Source: Verrucomicrobiota bacterium
GTDB taxonomy: Bacteria; Verrucomicrobiota; Verrucomicrobiia; Limisphaerales; AAA164-E04
Direction of reading: 5' to 3'
Length of the DNA stretch: 64,000 nucleotides
NCBI GenBank assembly: GCA_047947115.1
Contig: CP170459.1
Coordinates: forward strand, 2,720,001-2,784,000
Shown: one piece after another, positions 19,257-29,553 of the stretch
How positions within the stretch are numbered: position 1 is the stretch's first letter
Layout: the number at the start of each line of letters is the position of its first letter
The notes under the pieces: generated by a model
The model's database searches: none
The model's input: only the letters and a program-made list of their open reading frames with translations
What the model was told of the DNA's origin: nothing
Translations under genes and position numbers: made by a program

Positions 19257-21095
19257 ATGAGCTTTTCAAAATCGACCTTCTTAGGTGCGGCGCTAGGATT
19301 GGGGCTTTCCCAGTTCGCGCAGGATTCAAATGCAGGTCTATTCAAAATAGACTTCGGGCATCTTCAAAACGAAGCTCCCATATTGGAATATGAAATCGAC
19401 TATTTCGATGGGGAAGTTTTTGGTGGACCTGAGGAAATCGATTCCCAGCCGGCAGAGCCTTTGACCGATTGGGATGTGATTCCAACCTTTACCTTTGCCG
19501 ACCCCAATGCGGAAGTGACCGAAGGAAGCGCCAGTCTCATGGGGGAAGCGAACGAAGCCGGCACCGAAGTCACCTGGTCCTTGCGTGATTTTTCCGAATC
19601 GGGCAGCGACAGTGATGTCACCATGACCATTCTGGACAACACGGCATTGCCTCCTGCGATGCTCGGGATGACTGCCAACAACCCAACCCACGAAGGTTTC
19701 AAATATGTGGATTTTGACGGGAACGCCATCCCACTGCCGCAATACCAACATGTCCCGGAAATTATTTATGACGGTGTCCTTGTTCCATTTGTGGTGAAGG
19801 ATGATTATCTCTACCGGAATCCGGACAATGCTGGAACCGAGTCCTTGATGCGTTTTGGAAATCTTGATCCTGGCTTTTACAAGGTCACCGTGTTTGAGGG
19901 GCGAACCACTGATGGCAATGGTCGATTCGGAAAAGTGTGGGCAGGTGATATCAACGGCTCCAACCATCCTGACGAACAGAACACTGGCAATTATGCCGGT
20001 ATCTATGATTCCGGGGAAATCGCCCCACAAGGACAGCCACGCTCCGTGGTGGTTGAAGTCAAGGCTGGCGAATATCTGTGGTTTGCTGAAATGGAGGATA
20101 ACTCCGGTGGCATTAGCGGCATGATCGTTCGTTCTGTTGATTTCCCACCTCCTCCCGCCGATGTGGCCACATCACCCGGTTTGTTCAAGATTGATTTTGG
20201 CCATCATGAAAATGATAAAGAAGGTGTGGAAGCGCTTTCAGATTGGAACGTGATTCCCACCTGGACATTCAGTGATCCCAACAGCGATGTCGCAGAGGGA
20301 AGCTCCAGCCTTGAAGGCACCGCCAATGCCGCTCAAACCGAAGTCACCTGGGCATTGACCGACTTCTCAAATGACAAGAATGCCAACGTGACCATGACTA
20401 TCATGGACAATGCAGCCTTGACAGCAGCCACAGGGCAGCCTCCTGCATTGGGGCAGATCTCCAACAATCCAACGCTCGAAAAATATGAAGGCCATTACGA
20501 TGGGGTTTTCATTCCTGCCATCGTCAAAAACGACTACAACTATCGCAATCCGGATACTGCCGGCTCCGAGCTTTTGATGCGTTTCGATGGACTGAAGCCC
20601 GGGACGTACAACGTGACGGTTTTCGAAGGTCGCACGACAGATGGCAACGGCCGATTCGGTAAAGTCTGGGTGGATGATATGAGTGGCGGCAACGCCCCTG
20701 CTGAACAGAACACCGGAAACTATGCCGGTATGGTCAACCCAGGAAGCGGTGCTGTGATTGCTCCTGCCGGAAACCCTCAGACCGTCACCGTCAATCTTGG
20801 CGAAGGACAGCATCTCTGGTTTGCTGAAATGGAAGACAACTCGGGTGGTATCAGCGGATTGATCATCCGTGGTGTCAGCGGAGGCAGCACCGGCGGTGGT
20901 GATCCCGAGCCGGGAGGTGGCCCTGCCAATGTGGCGATTTCTGCCTCGACGGACAAGGTGACCCTTTCATGGGAGGGTACGGGCGCTCTGCAAAAAGCAG
21001 ATGCCGTGACTGGTCCCTGGAGCAATGTAGCCGGAGCCACCAGTCCATATGAGGCTGCCGCTACCGGGGCGGCAGCATTCTTCCGAGTGCGATAA
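19257..21095 (+). CDS. Secreted acidic protein with a tandemly duplicated unknown domain and a C-terminal FFR-type domain
   Basis: Signal peptide, two copies of GLFKIDFGH...EMEDNSGGISG, Gly/Pro linker and C-terminal ...GPW...SPY...FFRVR. Confidence 0.88.
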   Translation: MSFSKSTFLGAALGLGLSQFAQDSNAGLFKIDFGHLQNEAPILEYEIDYFDGEVFGGPEEIDSQPAEPLTDWDVIPTFTFADPNAEVTEGSASLMGEANEAGTEVTWSLRDFSESGSDSDVTMTILDNTALPPAMLGMTANNPTHEGFKYVDFDGNAIPLPQYQHVPEIIYDGVLVPFVVKDDYLYRNPDNAGTESLMRFGNLDPGFYKVTVFEGRTTDGNGRFGKVWAGDINGSNHPDEQNTGNYAGIYDSGEIAPQGQPRSVVVEVKAGEYLWFAEMEDNSGGISGMIVRSVDFPPPPADVATSPGLFKIDFGHHENDKEGVEALSDWNVIPTWTFSDPNSDVAEGSSSLEGTANAAQTEVTWALTDFSNDKNANVTMTIMDNAALTAATGQPPALGQISNNPTLEKYEGHYDGVFIPAIVKNDYNYRNPDTAGSELLMRFDGLKPGTYNVTVFEGRTTDGNGRFGKVWVDDMSGGNAPAEQNTGNYAGMVNPGSGAVIAPAGNPQTVTVNLGEGQHLWFAEMEDNSGGISGLIIRGVSGGSTGGGDPEPGGGPANVAISASTDKVTLSWEGTGALQKADAVTGPWSNVAGATSPYEAAATGAAAFFRVR

Positions 21096-21120: not shown

Positions 21121-21155
21121 AAAGGTCGGACCGATAGGTCCGACCTTTTTGTTTT
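21121..21155 (+). terminator. Intrinsic terminator
   Basis: Perfect stem AAAGGTCGGACC-GATA-GGTCCGACCTTT followed by TTGTTTT. Confidence 0.85.
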
Positions 21156-21205: not shown

Positions 21206-21934
21206 CTATTTTCCTGTCCCCAGTGGATGCCATTGATCCACTGGATTCGGATCTGAAGCATAGGTGGTTTCAAACCTTTCAACGGACGCATGTCCGTCCG
21301 CATATCCATAGACGGATCGATCATCCTTTCCATGCCTGTCTTTGTCGACCGAGGATGTCATGCCCTGATCCCAGAAATGTGCCATGATGTGATCGGCTCC
21401 ATCGGCGACTTCACCTAACAGAATGGTTTCGGTCGGTTGGGGGAGGGAAGTTTGCTTCCTCCATGTCTTGGGACGCCCACGGTAGTCATCGGCTTCTTCC
21501 AGTTCGAAGTAAACATTCAACCCATAACTCCATCGGGCAAGCTTTCCTGCTTTGGGGCATCTGAACACACCGTTGTGAAGTGCTGACATGCCCTCGGATG
21601 ATTGGAGTGCTTCCAGCCCGACATAAGGCCGGACCGTGATTTCCCATGGGGGTTGATGATAGGCGAAGGAAGAGTGCTGACTTCTGGGGAACGTGTCTTC
21701 GAAATCATCGGCATACATACGGATGCCAAGACTCAAATGGCGGATGTTATTAAGACATTGAATCCGTGAGGCACTGGTTTTTGCCTTGCTCAGTGCCGGA
21801 AGCAGCATGCCTGCCAAAATGGCAATAATGGCTATGACGACCAGCAATTCGATGAGTGTGAAACCGGAGCGCACGCACTTTTTATGAAAGCAAGTGCACC
21901 CATTCTGATCGGATTTGAATCGCATTAGATTCAT
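21206..21934 (-). CDS. Prepilin-type N-terminal cleavage/methylation protein with H-X9-DG-like C-terminus (DUF1559-like)
   Basis: [38 protein letters not shown] and RH...YADGH motifs. Confidence 0.92.
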
Positions 21935-22770
21935 TCTGCTTCTTCGTGTGATACCAGGCGAAAGAACATTCCTTGATACGAATGGTCCAGAATAACCGTG
22001 GCGTTTCCATCAATCATCACCGGCGTTTGATGCATGGGTTGCCATTCTCCTGACTCAAGATCTGTGGTCGACTGAAGATGGTAATGCCCGACAGGCTGTG
22101 GCCAACTTAGTACGATTTTCTGTGAAATACCTAATGCCGGAACGACGTCCGAATGCTCGGCTGTCCATAAAAGGGTGAAGGTGATTCCTCCGATGTCTGC
22201 TCGTCGTTTCCCTGAGTCCAGATCCACGACAAAGGCTTCGAAATCAGCCGACAATGGGCCGCTGCCTTGAAGCGCTGCGAAGGCCGGATGAAACATGCGC
22301 ATATCCCATTCGAAGATCTTGCTGGAATCATGTGTGCCGAACATGGGGGTCCAGATTTGTTCGTCATCACTGATGCTTCGATAGGTGTAGGCCTCCAAAC
22401 CGTGATCTGCTGAAACCAATTGGATCCAAATCGCCGTCCCAAGTGGGAGCAGATCGCTGGCTCCGTCCATGACAAAGCCGTATTGTCGATTGAATGCTTT
22501 CCCCTGGTGGTCGGGATCCAGGTCCTCATACCAAGGGGAGGTTGGATGGAAGTGCATGTCGGGATGACTTTCCTCCAAAGGTGTCAAATGGGGAATTTCG
22601 GAAGGCATGGTCACCATCAAGTGACCGTGTTCAGCCATATAACGAATGGCGGGCATGACCATGCCTCCCTGCATGGGGACTGAACCAAGTTGCGTTTCCT
22701 GTGCCTGTAAGTTGACGACAGTTGAAGCCGCAATAAGGGTCGATGTGACGATAAATGTGCTTAAATTCAT
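21931..22770 (-). CDS. Secreted Met/His-rich hypothetical protein with a C-terminal FFR-type domain
   Basis: Signal peptide, MQGGMVM...MAEHGHLM...HPDMHFH, C-terminal LSWP...LQSTTDL...W...FFRL. ATGA overlap with the pilin-like gene. Confidence 0.85.
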
Positions 22771-22920
22771 GTATATTTATGGTTTTGTTTGATTTTTAAT
22801 GGCTTGAAGCCTGCGAGTCCTCGGGTGATGACTGCAGATGTCGCCTCGTGGCCCTACCGATTCAAAGGAGGCCAGGGTACACGAAACTATGTAGAGGCTT
22901 GGTTGCCTCCAATGTGTTGA

Positions 22921-23301
22921 TCACGACAAAACCAAACGGGGAGGGGGAAGGTCGGGAGGCGCGCGTAACGTTGTGAACCCGCGCACCACAGGAGAGGTGT
23001 CTTTCTGGACATTGGGTGCCATCAGAGCAATGGCAGATCCCTGGTGAAAGAGGTCCAGTTTGATGTTGGATTTGAGGAAGTCTTGATGTGATTCCTGTTT
23101 CTTACCTTCCCGGACGAGTCGGCAGATTTCGCAGGAAGTTTCGGAATCAAAAGTTTTTGATATGGCGCTGATCAAGGATCGATCTTGGGAAAAATCCAGG
23201 ATCATGTTCGCCCACCCAATTGTCTGCAACAGCCCCCAATGGCCACCAATACTGATGGTCAGGCTTACGACAACGATGAATCTGGCGAACAAGTGACGCA
23301 C
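22921..23301 (-). CDS. CxxC/RAPP leader protein (DUF2946/CruR/CutF-like)
   Basis: Hydrophobic N-terminus, CEIC, C-terminal LRAPPDLPPPR. Confidence 0.75.
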   Translation of the reverse strand: MRHLFARFIVVVSLTISIGGHWGLLQTIGWANMILDFSQDRSLISAISKTFDSETSCEICRLVREGKKQESHQDFLKSNIKLDLFHQGSAIALMAPNVQKDTSPVVRGFTTLRAPPDLPPPRLVLS

Positions 23302-23403
23302 TTCAGGTGAACACTGCTCCGACCGTCCTGTGTAGTCAAAGGAAATGTTTCAATTGAAGGTTAGTCCGATGCAGGAACTCTTCAAATTCAATCCTCAAGT
23401 TGA

Positions 23404-23715
23404 CTAAGCTGCGCTTAGAGGACGTATGCGTTTTACATCTTTGTGGATCGCTTTGCTGGCGTTCCATAGATCAACTGCTCGTTGTGCGTTTAGCCAGAAT
23501 TCAGGGCTATTGCCAAAAAGTCGCGCAAGCCGCAATGCCATCTCTGGACTTATTGATCGCCGTTCCCGTAAAAGTTCGTTAATGGACTGGCGTGACACGC
23601 CAATCGCATTCGCCAAACCGGAAACGGAAAGTTCGAAATCCGGCAAATAGTCTTCTCGCAACATCTCTCCTGGATGCGTCGGTCGGCGTTTGATTCCTGT
23701 GTTTGCTATTCCCAT
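23404..23715 (-). CDS. higA: HigA family antitoxin (HTH-XRE)
   Basis: PTHPGEMLREDYL, LANAIGVSRQSINE, ISPEMALRLARLFG and FWLNAQ motifs. Confidence 0.93.
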   Translation of the reverse strand: MGIANTGIKRRPTHPGEMLREDYLPDFELSVSGLANAIGVSRQSINELLRERRSISPEMALRLARLFGNSPEFWLNAQRAVDLWNASKAIHKDVKRIRPLSAA

Positions 23716-23728
23716 GGCATCTTTTTTA

Positions 23729-24010
23729 TTAGTGATAATCACAGACTTCTACTTCGTATGCATCACCATCTTTAAATCTGAAACATATCCTCCACTGATC
23801 GTTGATGAAAATGGCATGCTGACCCTTTCTATCCCCGGCAAGGGCATGCAGTCGATTTCCTGGAGGGGAACGCAGATCGTCTAATTTGGATGCCAAGTCC
23901 ACATACTCAAGCTTTCTGCCGGCACGTTTTGCAACATCAGCAGGGAAGCGTTTTGCTTTCCCTGATTCATATAACTCCTTCGTGCGTCGATCAGCAAAGG
24001 TTGTGATCAC
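23729..24010 (-). CDS. higB: HigB (RelE/ParE superfamily) toxin
   Basis: DLRSPPGNRLHALAGDRKGQ, INDQWRICFRF and DYH C-terminus. GTG start at 24010. Confidence 0.93.
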   Translation of the reverse strand: MITTFADRRTKELYESGKAKRFPADVAKRAGRKLEYVDLASKLDDLRSPPGNRLHALAGDRKGQHAIFINDQWRICFRFKDGDAYEVEVCDYH

Positions 24011-24016
24011 TGCCAA

Positions 24017-24075: not shown

Positions 24076-27000
24076 TTACGGCGCTATCGTCCACGGTCCG
24101 TTCACCGTGGGTGCCGTTTCCAGTGGTCCTTCCACCTGGATGAGGATGGTTGTTGGATCTTCTCCAAGGATGATCAGGTTTCGACCACGATAGAATCGGG
24201 CAGCCTCTGTGGCTTCGATGGAGAGTGTGCGAATGCTTGGTCCGACGACGGGTCCGTCGCATTCGTCCGGGATGCCGTTTCCGTCCAGATCATCGACAAA
24301 GCCCAGGGCAATTTCGTCCGCATCGAGGATGCCGTTCATGTTGCAGTCACCACTGCCGAATGGATCGCATTCGTCCGGTTTCATGTCGTCATTCAGATCA
24401 TTGGAAAATCCCGATTGAATGTCGCATCGATCCGGAATGCCGTTGCCGTTGCAATCGGCGACCAGACCTTCGGTAATGGCAAGGATGTCGTTGACCCCGT
24501 CTCCGTCGCAGTCTTCACCGCTCGGAATGCTTACCATGTATTCGCGAATGCTTTGGGTTTCTCCGTTTGCAAAGGTGGCGACTAGGTGGCCGATGCCGGA
24601 TGCGTGCGGTTGGAGTTGGATGCTGCGGAACTCGCCGCTTGCTTCATGTGTGATGGGTGTCGGACCGGATATCAGTTCACCATTTTCATTCACCCACGCA
24701 GTCAACACTGCCGCTTCGTCCGCTCCTTCGATCCATGCAAGGAGATAGGTGTTGATCCCATCGATTTGTAACGGCAGGACATTGATGTCGTTGCCCGGTG
24801 TGAATAGTGTCGTGGATGGCATGGGGGTAAACTGGCCGCTGTCTGCATCCCATTGATGCAAGGTGATCGATTGATCTTCCATGATGCCAGCCGTGATCAG
24901 ATTTCCCTGATGGCCCTGGTGCACGTCGAAGGGTGAGCGAATGTTTGAAAGAGCGAGACTTGGGGACGGCCAAGTCGCTCCATTCCAGTCCAGAGTATAA
25001 AGTTCATTGGCAGGATTGGAGACGCTGAGTTTGGCGGCGATTTCATCCACCGCGTTGAGTTCATAATGGACCCATTCACCGTTTGCGAGCGCCAGATCGG
25101 GTCCCACCCAGACCCCGTTAATAAAGGACATGGTATGGAGGGAACGGTTCCGACCCAGCGGACCTTCATCTGTGATGAAAAATGCCGCCATGGCACCGGT
25201 GCCGATGGATGTCAGGTCCAATTGATAAATGGCGTCTTCGGAGGACATCAATTCCACGGGGGTGCTCCATTGTCGACCGGAAGGATCCGATTGCAGTGAT
25301 TTCAAAACCGTCGAGGGGTAGGGGGTGAGGATATCGGTGTCTTCCAGTTCGCTCCAGACGACCAACCATGAACCGTCTGCAAGTTGTTCGGAAGCGACGG
25401 AGACCATGCCATGGGACCGGGCGAGTTCCTGGGGTGCCTGCCATCCATTGTCAGTCATTTGACTCATCAGGAGGGTCATTTCACCTGTTTCTGGATCGGT
25501 GCCGGTGTAGACCAGAGAGGTGCCGTTTCCTGATGAAAAGTCCATGTGACCCGCATCATAGAAATCCTTCACGAGTGTTCCACCCGTGCCGACGAATTGT
25601 GACGGCAGGGCGGTCATGGGAGTGATGATGATGGATGAGGTGTTTAATGGAGTTAAATCAAAGGTCGGCACGGAAGCACGTTCGATGTTGAAAGTAAGCA
25701 GGTCGTATTGCCAGGATTTGCTGATACTGGTGACGTACAGGTTTAACTTGGCTGAGAAGACAAAACTGATGGCTCCTGTGATTTTCTTGACGAGAGGTTG
25801 TCGCCCCAGATCGTTGATATCGATAAACACTCCGTCCACATCCGACTGTCCTTTTGGGGCTCCGAGTTGAACCTTGCCAGATGCAGTGAGTGAATTATTG
25901 GCGATGCTTCCCTTGAGTCCCAACGCTACCCGGACGATTAATTTCTTCTCATTGGAGATCTTGGTGTTGTCCTTGATATCGGTGGCCACGTCATTGACCG
26001 TGCCAATCATGTTGTATCCGGGCGTGGTGGGGGGCGGATCGTTCCGGCCTGTCGTGGCCCCGAGATCGCGTCCTTTGGGGATGCTGTGCTCGAACTTGAC
26101 GGTCACCTTGGCACCCGTGGTCACTTCAAAAAATGCTTCCAGGCTGAGTGCGGTATAACCAAAAATATCCTCGATGGCTTCATTGAGTTCCTGAATGGGC
26201 TTACCGTATGGCAGCAGTTCGATGACGGGGGTAATATCGACACCGACACCCAGGTCAACGGTTCCCTGAGCTTCGAGGATGCCTGTGGACATGGACAGGC
26301 GATTCACGCCGGCGCTTCCTGAGTCAAAGGTCTGGCAGTTGGCGAACTTTGCGGAGATGCTCACCTTGGGCCCGCTGAAATTCACTCGATCACCGACGAG
26401 TTCCTTTGCTCGGGCCGCCAGTTTGGGAATGTATTTGTCCTTGGATCTTTCTTTGTCAATTTCGGCTTCATTGGCAAGAACGACCGCAATACATGCCTGA
26501 TTATCGCCCCCGGAAACCTCAAATTCTGCATCCACTCCCGCACCGCTGATCTTTAAGCCCATATATTTTGCAGCAAGCGACATCGGACCCCGCTGAGGGC
26601 TGTCTTCGCCGATGGGGAGTTCGATGCCCAGTACGTATTTGTAGGTTATATAGAGATTGTCTGCCAATAGATCCTCGGTGGGATTGAAGACATACCGGCT
26701 TTCGCTATCAGGCGCGGTGTTGATGGGCACCACCCCGATACGTGCTTCTATTTTTCCGGATTGAGCCAGTTTCAGGAATCGATCCCCAAAATTCTTGTTC
26801 AGTTCGCCGGTTCCTTGTCTTTGGGTGGTAGCTTGGGCTTCCTCGTCCTCATCCTCTTCAGGAGCACCAACGCTTGGAAGTGTGGATGCGGCTCCGACAA
26901 CTTCCAGAATGTTGGCAGCCCAACGTGGCATGGTCATCCCTCTCAACGGGGCGGCTTTTTTGGGACCATCGTCGCCGGGGACATCCGGTAGCTCATAATC

Positions 27001-29553
27001 ATGGAATGTCACTCCACCGTTTTTGGAGATCACCACCGCCATGGGTTTGAATTCACCTGCCGGCAGTTCCCAGAGTCGCAGTTTTCCTTCGAACTCATCA
27101 TCCTCGTTGATATCTCCTTTGAGGGCAATTTTATGAACCACATAATAAGGTTCACCATCTTTCTGTGCGCTGGATATTTCCGCCAGCCATTCCCGTGTCG
27201 TGACATAATTCACCGTTGATGGAATGCTTAAATCCCAAACTTGTTCATCGTTCACGCTTGGATTTTTGAAGAAGCGCTTGTCCACCAGCCAAACCTCTTC
27301 GATTTCGTCTCTGACTCTGCTTGTTTGATCAGGTGTGGCTTGTTCGTTTTCGCCCACAAAACCTGGTAATGTCAGCGAATAGCTTTGTGGGTCGGCTGCA
27401 ACTTTCCAGGTGGCAGTCAGTTTCCCGCGGCTTGCTTCCGGATTCAGACCTACTGAACTCAGGTTGCTGTCGGTAGCTTTGGTAACTCCGGGGATGAACA
27501 TGCCAAATCGGTTCAATGTAAACTTGGTGACCTCCGGTCCCGGGACTTTGCTCATGGTCAGGTTTTGATCAAGAAAATCCGGTTCGTCGAGATTGGTGGG
27601 CGCATATTTGATTCGGAGTGGTTTGTATCCTCTTCGGTTGATGTCCAGAAAAGTGGTCTGAGGAACAAGTCGCGCCACGGAAAATCGACCGTTGGCATCG
27701 GTAATGGCATTGCTGATGGGATTGCCATAACGGTTGCGTGCCACTATGGCGGCGCCGGGAATGTTTTCTCCGTCCTCGCCTTTCAGCGTTCCCGTGATCA
27801 ACATGGCTCGTTGCATGTTTACGGTAAGCCTGAGCAATCTTGCTTCGGGATCGATCACTTCAACTTTGCTGGGAGGCCAGAAAGCATACGTCCATTGCCC
27901 CGGTTTCTGTTCGGCTCCAGAAGGGTAGGGATTTCCCGTGAATGTGGATGTTTCCCCTGCTGGAAGGGTTTGAGGTGGATTCCCGTTGAAGCTTACTGTC
28001 ACGTTTGGAATCTGGCGATTGGGATCACCTGTGCTGACGGCTCGAATATCCAATTGATAATTCTTCAGATTTCCAACCTGAGTGCTCCCTGCCGAATTTC
28101 CCAAATAGATGGGGGAATTTGCCAGGGAGAAATTGTCAAGCGGCCCACCTATGATCGCACGTTCCAGATTTGCCGGGCCCGCCCCACCAACTTTAAACCA
28201 ACTGGCATTTTGTAGCCAGACAATGTAGTTGCCCTTTGGAATACCTTCCCCAAAAGCATAGACGAACACTTTGTTTCCGGTTGCCGAACTCATGAAGAAT
28301 TCCGGTCGTTGAAGGCCATGGTATACATATCCGTCGTCTGGCCCATCGTAGCGTGAGCTTTCTATGAACACTTCCCCTTTGTATTTCCAATCTGCTTCGA
28401 TGTTGAATTGTTCCGTGCAATGGGAAATACCTGGAAAAAAGTAAGTAGGGGTGAACGGTTCGACTCGGGGCAACACTCCCGGAGCATCCCAGCCCTCGAT
28501 TGAAAACTGCACGGGGGGAGCGTCGTAATCTTCATGGATGAGTTCCAAGGTGTAGTCGCCGGGCAGCAGATATTTCATCAGGAAAAAATTGTCACTTCGC
28601 ATGGTTGTTTCCAGAGTGACTGGTCCTGTGACCCGGATGCGGGCATCGGTGGCCAGGAGGTGCTTGTAAGGAAATGTTTGGAGTCCGGTGCCGTCTTCGT
28701 TCATTCTGAGAACCTGGTTTCCGAAAGGTTCATTGGTTGTGTTGATTCGTCCGCCTGTATGGATGTAGTGCCGATGCACAAACAGATCCAATTGATAATG
28801 GTGGGATGAATCAAACCGCAATCCCGCCTTGTGGTGGCCGAATTCAAAATTGCCGTAAGGCCAGGTGTCGGGATAAGGCCACCCGGATTCCACGGGAGGG
28901 ATGCCGCCGGTCAAATCTCCGAATTCGACGTTGTGTCCTGCGTAGCCATTCATGGTCGGGATCTTTACCCCATAGATGCCGGGGAGAATGGTGGCGGTGT
29001 AATTGCCTGCTTCATCGGTGTCGACGCTCAATACTTTGTGCGTATCGTCCAACTGTTGAATGATTTGGTGTTCGATGAACTCGATGCCATCGTGAGCGAT
29101 TTGATAAAAGACACGGTTGGGTTCGGAATAACAAGGTTCGAAATCCAGATTGCCATTTGTGTCGGTGGCCCACAGGCGCCCTTGGATGGTGGCCGGAATG
29201 GGGTTCAGATCGATGAACGCGGTCTCTGTTTTCCCTGGATCCACTTCAGCATAGGTTTCTTGGGGGAAGAATTTGATGTGAAACGCCTCAGGACCTTGTA
29301 ATGGTCCTGACTGACTTGGAAGGTTTTGGAGTGTTGCTTCGTGCACGACCTGCAGCCAATACCTTCCAGGCATTAAATTTTCGAACAATACTTTGACGAA
29401 CAATCCATCCTCGTCCAGAGCGGTCATGGCCTCTCGCGTGATGCCTTCAGCACTGGAACCATCCACCCCTCGAAGTACAACGCGGGCGCCTTCCAGAATG
29501 TCCGTGTTCTCATAGGGTGAATCAAGGATCACCTCCACTTTGGTGGGCAACAA
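24076..29553 (-). CDS. Very large extracellular protein, main part (carboxypeptidase-regulatory-like domains, propeller-like region, DCxxNG calcium-binding repeats)
   Basis: TDEAGNY and TDANGRFS beta-sandwich motifs; C-terminal repeats DCDGDGVND, DCNGNGIPDRCD, DLNDDMKPDECD, DCNMNGILD, DLDGNGIPDECD. Confidence 0.85.
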   Translation of the reverse strand: MLPTKVEVILDSPYENTDILEGARVVLRGVDGSSAEGITREAMTALDEDGLFVKVLFENLMPGRYWLQVVHEATLQNLPSQSGPLQGPEAFHIKFFPQETYAEVDPGKTETAFIDLNPIPATIQGRLWATDTNGNLDFEPCYSEPNRVFYQIAHDGIEFIEHQIIQQLDDTHKVLSVDTDEAGNYTATILPGIYGVKIPTMNGYAGHNVEFGDLTGGIPPVESGWPYPDTWPYGNFEFGHHKAGLRFDSSHHYQLDLFVHRHYIHTGGRINTTNEPFGNQVLRMNEDGTGLQTFPYKHLLATDARIRVTGPVTLETTMRSDNFFLMKYLLPGDYTLELIHEDYDAPPVQFSIEGWDAPGVLPRVEPFTPTYFFPGISHCTEQFNIEADWKYKGEVFIESSRYDGPDDGYVYHGLQRPEFFMSSATGNKVFVYAFGEGIPKGNYIVWLQNASWFKVGGAGPANLERAIIGGPLDNFSLANSPIYLGNSAGSTQVGNLKNYQLDIRAVSTGDPNRQIPNVTVSFNGNPPQTLPAGETSTFTGNPYPSGAEQKPGQWTYAFWPPSKVEVIDPEARLLRLTVNMQRAMLITGTLKGEDGENIPGAAIVARNRYGNPISNAITDANGRFSVARLVPQTTFLDINRRGYKPLRIKYAPTNLDEPDFLDQNLTMSKVPGPEVTKFTLNRFGMFIPGVTKATDSNLSSVGLNPEASRGKLTATWKVAADPQSYSLTLPGFVGENEQATPDQTSRVRDEIEEVWLVDKRFFKNPSVNDEQVWDLSIPSTVNYVTTREWLAEISSAQKDGEPYYVVHKIALKGDINEDDEFEGKLRLWELPAGEFKPMAVVISKNGGVTFHDYELPDVPGDDGPKKAAPLRGMTMPRWAANILEVVGAASTLPSVGAPEEDEDEEAQATTQRQGTGELNKNFGDRFLKLAQSGKIEARIGVVPINTAPDSESRYVFNPTEDLLADNLYITYKYVLGIELPIGEDSPQRGPMSLAAKYMGLKISGAGVDAEFEVSGGDNQACIAVVLANEAEIDKERSKDKYIPKLAARAKELVGDRVNFSGPKVSISAKFANCQTFDSGSAGVNRLSMSTGILEAQGTVDLGVGVDITPVIELLPYGKPIQELNEAIEDIFGYTALSLEAFFEVTTGAKVTVKFEHSIPKGRDLGATTGRNDPPPTTPGYNMIGTVNDVATDIKDNTKISNEKKLIVRVALGLKGSIANNSLTASGKVQLGAPKGQSDVDGVFIDINDLGRQPLVKKITGAISFVFSAKLNLYVTSISKSWQYDLLTFNIERASVPTFDLTPLNTSSIIITPMTALPSQFVGTGGTLVKDFYDAGHMDFSSGNGTSLVYTGTDPETGEMTLLMSQMTDNGWQAPQELARSHGMVSVASEQLADGSWLVVWSELEDTDILTPYPSTVLKSLQSDPSGRQWSTPVELMSSEDAIYQLDLTSIGTGAMAAFFITDEGPLGRNRSLHTMSFINGVWVGPDLALANGEWVHYELNAVDEIAAKLSVSNPANELYTLDWNGATWPSPSLALSNIRSPFDVHQGHQGNLITAGIMEDQSITLHQWDADSGQFTPMPSTTLFTPGNDINVLPLQIDGINTYLLAWIEGADEAAVLTAWVNENGELISGPTPITHEASGEFRSIQLQPHASGIGHLVATFANGETQSIREYMVSIPSGEDCDGDGVNDILAITEGLVADCNGNGIPDRCDIQSGFSNDLNDDMKPDECDPFGSGDCNMNGILDADEIALGFVDDLDGNGIPDECDGPVVGPSIRTLSIEATEAARFYRGRNLIILGEDPTTILIQVEGPLETAPTVNGPWTIAP

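Follow-up and report, generated by a model that had tools for sequence, protein, structure and literature searches.

A putative copper-responsive leader peptide heads a conserved operon for a methionine-rich envelope protein and a prepilin-like protein in Verrucomicrobiota

Introduction

Leader peptides that control bacterial copper genes are the closest described counterparts of the system studied here, a three-gene operon at positions 21206-23301 on the minus strand of a 64,000-nucleotide (nt) stretch of a Verrucomicrobiota genome (assembly GCA_047947115.1, contig CP170459.1, positions 2,720,001 to 2,784,000; hereafter the window, to whose first letter all coordinates refer). In Bordetella pertussis, CruR (Bp2923), which belongs to DUF2946 (PF11162), precedes bfrG(crtA) and a PepSY_TM gene and carries a RAPP motif 45 residues after its CxxC motif (PMC9426467); arrest was shown in PMC12992588. 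In Rhodobacter capsulatus, CutF precedes cutO and ends in PEPEGPPPRL (bioRxiv 10.1101/2025.02.05.636593), and CutF-like proteins were collected as peptides of less than 150 amino acids (aa), with an N-terminal signal peptide, PP within the last 15 residues and a same-strand gene within 1000 nt (PMC9973294). Genes of the prepilin-like family DUF1559 already stand out in this field, since the source data of PMC12992588 show them enriched 6.5-fold downstream of RAPP upstream open reading frames (ORFs), with 112 RAPP against 68 AAPP. The papers found to contain the term DUF1559 are genome or transcriptome surveys.

A preliminary description of the window, made from its letters, had proposed a CruR/CutF-like metal-sensing leader at the head of an operon for a Met/His-rich secreted protein (hereafter gene 2) and an H-X9-DG prepilin (gene 3). 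Here we report that the leader, gene 2 and the prepilin gene are a real, conserved three-gene operon, and we propose that it is most likely a copper-gated module for copper capture in the cell envelope. We also describe a predicted complex, not anticipated in the preliminary description, in which gene 2 and the pilin would share one Met/His site.

Results

A conserved leader-gene 2-prepilin operon

All the elements named in the preliminary description were found at their minus-strand positions. The leader ORF (22921-23301, GTG start, 126 aa) contains CEIC (23122-23133), RAPP (22954-22965) and DLPPPR; a spacer of 150 nt (22771-22920), A-rich in its start region and devoid of a Shine-Dalgarno sequence, separates it from the gene for the exported, 279-aa gene 2 protein (21931-22770), which overlaps by ATGA with the ORF of a type IV prepilin-like protein of 242 aa with the motif GFTLIEL (21206-21934). 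A 12-bp hairpin between the operon end and a convergent gene (21121-21148) is a likely terminator. All three genes are partly covered by RNA-library contigs from four studies (4 of 24 listed runs), contigs from which strand, level and a single transcript cannot be read.

The gene order proved to be highly conserved, as the preliminary description had suggested checking. In an alignment scan of species-representative genomes, the best 80 of 115 gene 2 relatives were taken as the locus set. A leader lies 5′ of gene 2 in all 80 loci, as detected with a hidden Markov model built from the 78 loci that passed a plain filter (an ORF with CxxC and a proline tail upstream of gene 2); two leaders are split or truncated. 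Members of one single pilin subfamily lie 3′ of gene 2 in each of the 76 loci that leave room for them (800 nt or more). Eight of 41 related genomes carry gene 2, and the pilin subfamily is present in exactly these eight, with the two genes adjacent in each; the leader occurs in 17. The relatives of gene 2 come mostly from Verrucomicrobiota, including Limisphaerales and Kiritimatiellia, with a few other names that we take to be mislabelled, and the cassette is present in the cultured genus Limisphaera (L065 and L079, in our numbering of loci).

The leader has an invariant CxxC and a proline-rich end at near-fixed spacing

Relatives of the leader fall into 1675 clusters at 50% identity (E ≤ 1e-3), and the family is present in 70 of 301 genomes of the phylum. 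It has no match among Pfam or NCBIfam families, and fold and PDB searches gave no specific match. W30, M33 and both cysteines of the CxxC (C57 and C60; CEIC covers aa 57-60) are invariant in 131 aligned leaders, H21 is kept in 122 of them, and the family context around the CxxC reads TFDGxHPCxLC. At the N-terminus, a hydrophobic stretch (aa 4-22, recognised by eye, without a signal-peptide predictor) is followed by G-G-H-W-x-L-Q-x-x-A-W-x-x-M (23203-23292, minus strand), and this N-terminus would act as a signal or an anchor.

RAPP (aa 113-116), which had been proposed as the arrest motif, is not kept: it occurs in 1 of 83 cassette leaders, in none of the 61 leaders of the phylum sample and in none of 149 representatives, and we rejected it in that role. 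What is conserved is the ending PPxP(P/R)P(R/K), represented in the window by PPDLPPPR (22936-22959, minus strand), which is our candidate arrest motif. The second cysteine and PxP(R/K) are separated by 57-60 residues in 114 of the 121 representatives in which both motifs were scored, and by slightly more, mostly 58-63, in the phylum-sample leaders. In the window leader, 52 residues separate the CxxC from RAPP and 58 residues lie between C60 and PPPR. Thus, the CxxC and the proline-rich tail, the features whose loss had been named as speaking against a leader, are both conserved.

The proposed relationship with DUF2946 did not hold. PF11162 matched neither the window leader (E ≤ 1) nor any of 131 family members (E ≤ 0.1), and none of the 28 PF11162 matches in the 301 genomes coincides with a leader locus. 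Profile-profile comparison gave a probability of 33-45% for a local match around the CxxC only, and in a language-model search clusters with the name DUF2946 came out at only 0.90, which is a lead at best. With its different spacing as well, DUF2946 membership was rejected. Canonical DUF2946-like CxxC-RAPP/RGPP peptides do occur in the phylum, apart from the PPPR family (L189, L190, L192, L193, L195, L206, L210); in the DUF2946-like peptides of the phylum (n = 7) the spacing from CxxC to RAPP is 43-45 residues, for a CruR-type spacing defined as 45 ± 2. The window leader passes the published CutF-like filters for size, PP and gene distance, with its 126 aa, a PPPR four residues from the end and a gene 150 nt away. 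Judged by its anatomy, the leader is CruR/CutF-like without being a DUF2946 member.

Gene 2 and the prepilin are predicted to meet at a Met/His cluster

The AlphaFold2 model of gene 2 (predicted local distance difference test, pLDDT, 92) consists of an N-terminal beta-sandwich (about aa 24-207) and a small C-terminal domain (aa 214-276; 21943-22131, minus strand). We found 104 homologs; no Pfam or NCBIfam family matched at cut-off and no PDB sequence matched. The fold resembles generic beta-sandwiches, among which cupredoxin and multicopper oxidase domains are tied with others (best Z 6.1, root-mean-square deviation (rmsd) 3.1, 100 aligned). Six methionine columns and one histidine column are conserved: M33, M37 and M39 in MQGGMVM (22654-22674), M41, M101 in YGFVMD (22465-22482), and M159 and H161 in DMRMFH (22288-22305), all on the minus strand, the last two being invariant in 103 of 103 relatives. 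The His-rich stretches outside this cluster are not conserved; MAEHGHLM and HPDMHFH are not kept as motifs among homologs and were rejected as conserved metal motifs.

The C-terminal domain lies within five residues of the C-terminus in all six proteins that match it in the window genome, and PEP-CTERM stands in its place in three gene 2 relatives (P0110, L135, L157). As it ends six proteins of this genome and is swapped for PEP-CTERM in relatives, it is likely to be a sorting or anchoring domain; the window protein itself has no PEP-CTERM signal.

Gene 3 matches PF07963 (34.6 bits for a cut-off of 21.2; E 1.2e-8) and TIGR02532 (31.9 bits for a cut-off of 16.3), and falls just short for PF07596 (DUF1559; 22.6 bits for a cut-off of 23.3). 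TIGR04294 (H-X9-DG) is not listed among its family matches. Pilins rank first in fold searches (PilA4, Z 5.4, rmsd 3.9, 120 aligned), as generic pilins only. The prepilin motif and DHIMAH were correctly read in the preliminary description; the generic H-X9-DG-type motif, H201 to DGH215 (21290-21337, minus strand), has an X11 in the window, X9 being the family consensus, and is not named in the interface described below. The window genome encodes 83 pilin paralogs and several secretins. Two motifs set gene 3 apart from these paralogs: S(Q/S)HS, found in gene 3 alone (RSQHSSF, 21665-21685, minus strand), and DHxM, found in gene 3 and one other (DHIMAH, 21377-21394, minus strand). His87 of the former and D181, His182 and Met184 of the latter are invariant in the gene 3 subfamily, and His87, His182 and Met184 are rare (13-17%) in the paralogs.

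The pilin head and gene 2 are predicted to bind, with scores of 0.82, 0.82 and 0.81 against 0.00 for the best control. The score mark used is reached by 116 of 157 solved pairs and 2 of 215 mismatched pairs, and is roughly valid with our own alignments. The runs agree in at least 83% of contacts, with a partner pLDDT of 86. All seven conserved Met/His columns of gene 2 lie within its 34-residue predicted interface (hypergeometric 4e-6). On the pilin side, Q86-F90 forms the core of the predicted interface, His87 touches Met159 of gene 2 in the model, and D181 and Met184 lie within it; the interface is enriched in pilin residues specific to the subfamily (8 of 21 against 21 of 174, p = 0.005). 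Structure and PDB searches with either chain found no solved complex like this one. Altogether, these predictions make it quite probable that gene 2 and the pilin head form a real complex.

The leader family precedes copper and outer-membrane genes elsewhere

We surveyed the neighbours of 61 of the 81 leader matches from the 301 genomes (60 regions). The first gene behind the leader encodes OprC in 8 cases (TIGR01778 above cut-off), another TonB-dependent receptor in 12 and a putative outer-membrane barrel in 19, a class of our own grouping of which one type matches PF13557; gene 2 follows in 7 cases, TonB in 4, an extracytoplasmic function (ECF) sigma factor in 3, and other genes or none in 8. 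A receptor followed by PepSY_TM, as in the CruR layout, is found in L133, L159 and L164, and PepSY_TM, SCO, cytochrome c, CusF and CusB genes lie behind the leader in several regions. At the cassette itself, HMA, SCO or CusF-SCO genes lie 3′ of the pilin in 12 of the 64 loci with room. Since the family elsewhere precedes OprC, other TonB-dependent receptors and SCO genes, copper is the likely signal. The window genome itself encodes Rho, secretins and three members of the COX1 family; OprC was not found above cut-off.

The leader family also heads a second cassette, in which a DHFH pilin is followed by His-rich GHIHGR proteins (L064, L077 and L180-L182; in L136 with a gene between). It lies at L064:6178-9037 and L077:8442-10600, and both cassette types stand in tandem in these two loci. 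The GHIHGR proteins end in PEP-CTERM or in the gene 2-type C-terminal domain and weakly match choice-of-anchor M (best E 6.6e-6). This second pair under the same leader family suggests that pilin-partner pairs are a general design. Homology between the GHIHGR proteins and the N-terminal domain of gene 2 is not supported: the profile probability of 87% at full length falls to 0.2% without the shared C-terminal domain (in a set of ten, two of them spurious ORFs).

Other contexts of the leader were seen in passing. In L112 (G123:C6), two tandem leaders precede cytochrome c, SCO and TonB-dependent receptor genes. In one family of small genomes (L124, L131, L142, L147; L128, L138, L144) the leader occurs twice: one copy stands ahead of a TonB gene and the other ahead of the gene for an ECF sigma factor, which might then be a leader-controlled sigma factor. 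A third exported family behind the leader (WADxTDxxxGDSHR; L126:1121-1963, L136:2982-4196, L156:1056-3916) has PEP-CTERM or immunoglobulin-like C-termini and an N-terminal domain that matched no family.

A promoter-like site precedes the leader and its end may pair near the gene 2 start

A promoter-like site, TTGACT and CAGTGT separated by 17 nt (23311-23339, minus strand), ends 9 nt before the leader GTG and was also read from an alignment with L002 and L003. With the pattern of a TTG hexamer, 16-18 nt and (T/C)AnnnT, such sites were found in 28 of 53 regions upstream of leaders, compared with 3 of 66 spacers and 4 of 66 coding controls; most of the sites upstream of leaders share one position. 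A stricter consensus scan of the window listed no site in the spacer, nor the one before the leader. A separate promoter in the spacer is thus not supported, and the own promoter for the downstream gene that had been named as a refutation of leader control did not appear. As the promoter-like site lies just before the leader, the operon is likely to be one transcript with almost no 5′ leader. The proposal that a metal-sensing leader of the CruR/CutF kind heads this operon hence keeps the invariant CxxC, the proline-rich end at near-fixed spacing, this site and the copper genes found elsewhere, but loses RAPP and DUF2946.

Across the cassette loci the spacer has a median length of 213 nt and seldom contains a Shine-Dalgarno-like sequence (6 of 66), and Rfam gave nothing at gathering level. 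In the window, pairing is predicted between the last leader codons (22934-22926) and 22788-22780, a stretch immediately 5′ of the gene 2 start (minus strand; fold z = -2.9). Opening the gene 2 start would cost 4.2 kcal/mol when the leader end is free and 1.5 when it is covered; covering lowers the cost by 2.7 kcal/mol in the window and by 4.9 kcal/mol in L002. Occlusion above 1 kcal/mol was found in 16 of 66 loci against 4 of 66 swapped controls, the 66 being the 80 loci and the window minus 15 with no usable ATG or motif or with a spacer above 330 nt. Five loci have short spacers of 72-78 nt (L020, L022, L033, L062, L073), most of them with a Shine-Dalgarno-like sequence that alternative hairpins, seen by eye, could hide or expose in L020 and L033; these loci may use a CutF-like switch. 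Two rho-like genes are present in the window genome (G000:C1:4133302-4134540 and 5683551-5684636), one of them above cut-off.

Neighbouring genes in the window

Directly upstream of the leader lies a higBA-like toxin-antitoxin pair (23404-24016, minus strand), which looks recently inserted because it is found in none of the stored relative loci, including the same-genus L002, and because one RNA-library contig joins 23418 to 24004, skipping the pair. Further upstream, 24076-29553 (minus strand) encodes a protein of 1825 aa, syntenic in L002, that combines a carboxypeptidase-regulatory-like domain with Cys/Asp repeats at its C-terminus (DCNGNGIPDRC). The convergent gene at 19257-21095 (plus strand) encodes an exported protein of 612 aa. 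It contains an internal two-fold repeat, and its short C-terminal tail, W...FFRVR, is like the C-terminal domain of gene 2. RNA-library contig depth is much higher for this gene than for the operon, a depth that cannot rank expression.

Discussion

We consider it very probable that the leader is metal-responsive, and copper is probably the metal sensed. Our reading of the whole operon, which we hold with slight preference, is that it couples a copper-sensing stalling leader to two envelope proteins that capture scarce copper at a shared Met/His site. The leader would be exported co-translationally through its hydrophobic N-terminus, and its ribosome would likely stall in response to copper status. 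During a pause on PPxPPPR, the CxxC would lie 58 residues back in the chain, clear of the tunnel and the translocon given the known lengths of the ribosome tunnel, and could sample envelope copper. As in CruR, the pause would keep the downstream genes on by shielding against Rho; in the window genome it could also free the gene 2 start region, and copper binding would end it. Gene 2, anchored by its C-terminal domain, would present its Met cluster to His87 and Met184 of the pilin, holding or handing over Cu(I), which would then pass to HMA/SCO chaperones and heme-copper oxidases. As to direction, uptake is somewhat favoured over detoxification, because the leader family mostly precedes uptake-type genes and SCO, HMA and CusF genes follow the cassette pilin; efflux neighbours argue otherwise.

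Several observations weigh against this copper-capture reading. The window leader lacks the family's His55, the window gene 2 has Ala in place of M41, and the ending of the leader is like that of CutF, whose target is turned on by copper. Overall conservation of the gene 2 interface does not exceed background (p = 0.33), and conserved residues may have been drawn into the interface of a metal-free model because alignments were supplied. At the RNA level, the idea that the leader end hides the gene 2 start throughout the family was not supported (p = 0.16, 66 loci), nor was a Rho utilization (rut) signature: the excess of C over G near the leader stop is explained by proline codons, and synonymous sites are not enriched (p = 0.81). 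CusBA efflux genes lie 3′ of the pilin in L012, L025 and L032, and L067 has a related RND gene there; five more loci have CusB or CusA upstream, and in 45 of 64 loci none of the tested copper or cytochrome genes lies 3′ of the pilin. Finally, Methylacidiphilum-like contexts (L124, L128 and their kin), in which TonB or an ECF sigma factor comes after the leader, have no clear copper link.

Some of these points would fit the opposite polarity, in which copper, as for CutF, induces the stall, opens the gene 2 start and turns on a copper-sequestering surface or periplasmic pair for detoxification. The PPPRL ending, the pairing predicted beside the gene 2 start in the window and L002, with its 2.7 and 4.9 kcal/mol, and the presence of CusBA beside the cassette in several loci all speak for it. 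We nevertheless consider it unlikely, as 39 of the 61 surveyed leaders, including the 8 before OprC, precede uptake-type proteins, delivery genes (SCO/HMA) outnumber efflux genes after the pilin by 12 to 4 of 64 loci, and start occlusion is not family-wide. It is more unlikely still that the leader senses Zn, Co, Ni or the thiol-redox state of the envelope and that the pair handles that other metal. Met-rich ligand sets are of the Cu(I)/Ag(I) type, and the six methionines and one histidine conserved in gene 2 form such a set, in line with OprC, SCO, CusF and HMA as neighbours. In favour of another metal stand the second cassette, with its DHFH pilin, His-rich GHIHGR proteins and weak choice-of-anchor M match, the weak match of 3 of 103 gene 2 relatives to the Zur-repressed all3515 family (E 0.034), and the remark that some CutF-like leaders are not copper-specific (PMC9973294).

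Another reading limits the pilin to a cargo-specific adaptor by which a machine like that of type II secretion exports or displays gene 2. No metal would then pass through the pilin, and the interface methionines would be hydrophobic contacts or part of a metal site of gene 2 alone. This is compatible with copper regulation and differs from the copper-capture reading only in the metal step between gene 2 and the pilin. The 83 pilin paralogs and several secretins of the genome, the exchange of the C-terminal domain of gene 2 for PEP-CTERM and the general frequency of Met side chains at protein interfaces can be cited in its favour; the contact of the invariant His87 with Met159 in the model, and the invariance in the subfamily of His87, His182 and Met184, so rare in the paralogs, make it improbable. 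Least probable of all, in our opinion, is that the small ORF encodes an ordinary metal-binding protein or chaperone that is exported and acts in trans, with no regulatory leader function. The strong conservation of H21, W30 and M33 could indeed serve a mature protein, and no conserved RNA switch was found; yet the ORF comes first in its unit, is followed by a long spacer, stands before many unrelated types of genes, and keeps its proline run near the stop at a near-fixed distance from the CxxC while the linker diverges.

Going further than the copper-capture module itself, one can imagine a pilus-based copper uptake in which a retractile pilus or pseudopilus bears a copper-dedicated pilin. Through the shared site this pilin would receive Cu(I) from the Met-rich scavenger, itself anchored, and would carry it to SCO/HMA chaperones, in the slot that behind the same leader belongs to OprC in other genomes; in its broadest form, the 80-plus DUF1559-like pilins of such a genome would be ligand-specific modules with anchored partners of their own. 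We regard this as speculative and rather doubtful. If the pair does move copper, it would represent a pilin-based route of metal acquisition, for which we found no description in the literature searched, a search covering few subscription journals, and a large bacterial pilin-like family of unknown function would be linked to copper handling. More immediately, the analysis adds a large unnamed family of copper-type leaders, which surveys based on Pfam or RAPP would miss because of its PPPR/PRPR ending, and it provides a concrete candidate function for one DUF1559-like pilin subfamily, for which the partner, the predicted interface and individual Met/His residues can be named.

Comparison with known systems

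The leader resembles CruR as a small first gene with an export signal (by eye for our leader), a CxxC, a proline-rich end and a long spacer, and its family heads OprC and receptor-PepSY_TM operons elsewhere. It differs from CruR in that none of the 131 members has a Pfam match, RAPP is not conserved, the spacing is 52 (RAPP) or 58 (PPPR) residues instead of 45, the target is a Met-rich protein with a pilin, and synonymous sites bear no rut signature. CutF is the closer match by its PPPRL ending, and our leader is also like CutF-type leaders in size, PP and gene distance and in the pairing predicted near the downstream start in the window genome; CutF has CxxxC where our leader has CxxC, as well as a different target, and our family has few Shine-Dalgarno-like sequences in its spacers and no family-wide sequestering stem. 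Members of the family may be listed among the CutF-like proteins of PMC9973294. The RAPP/RGPP leaders of PMC12992588 share with ours the arrangement of an arrest-type leader before a DUF1559-like prepilin gene, but they are of the RAPP type, and the six listed rows with the search motifs of our family are unrelated peptides.

The preliminary description had also regarded a surface metal-binding protein and pseudopilin module as a target type not known to be described for such leaders. The enrichment of DUF1559 behind RAPP upstream ORFs precedes this claim in its general form, but we found no description of the Met-rich/pilin cassette: the available parts of PMC12992588 mention no Met-rich partner or complex, with DUF1559 absent from the main text, and three supplementary files of PMC9426467 contain no Verrucomicrobia name or prepilin term. 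Likewise, searches for the leader in Verrucomicrobia, for pilins with copper and PEP-CTERM and for the function of DUF1559/H-X9-DG proteins, with few subscription journals covered, found no paper on the cassette.

With type IV pilins, type II secretion pseudopilins, DUF1559 (PF07596) and H-X9-DG (TIGR04294) proteins, gene 3 shares the N-methyl motif, the long N-terminal helix and the pilin fold; its head differs by the subfamily-specific His/Met motifs and is predicted to dock a dedicated anchored partner. CusF, CopK and PCuAC are Met-rich copper proteins of the envelope, and gene 2, too, is an exported beta protein with a conserved Met/His cluster and a copper gene context. Gene 2 differs from these proteins, with which it was compared by Pfam only, in having no Pfam or PDB match and in a site that is predicted to lie between two proteins. 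Altogether, the leader is a variation on a known type of regulator, and the metal site predicted between the pilin and its partner is the surprising part.

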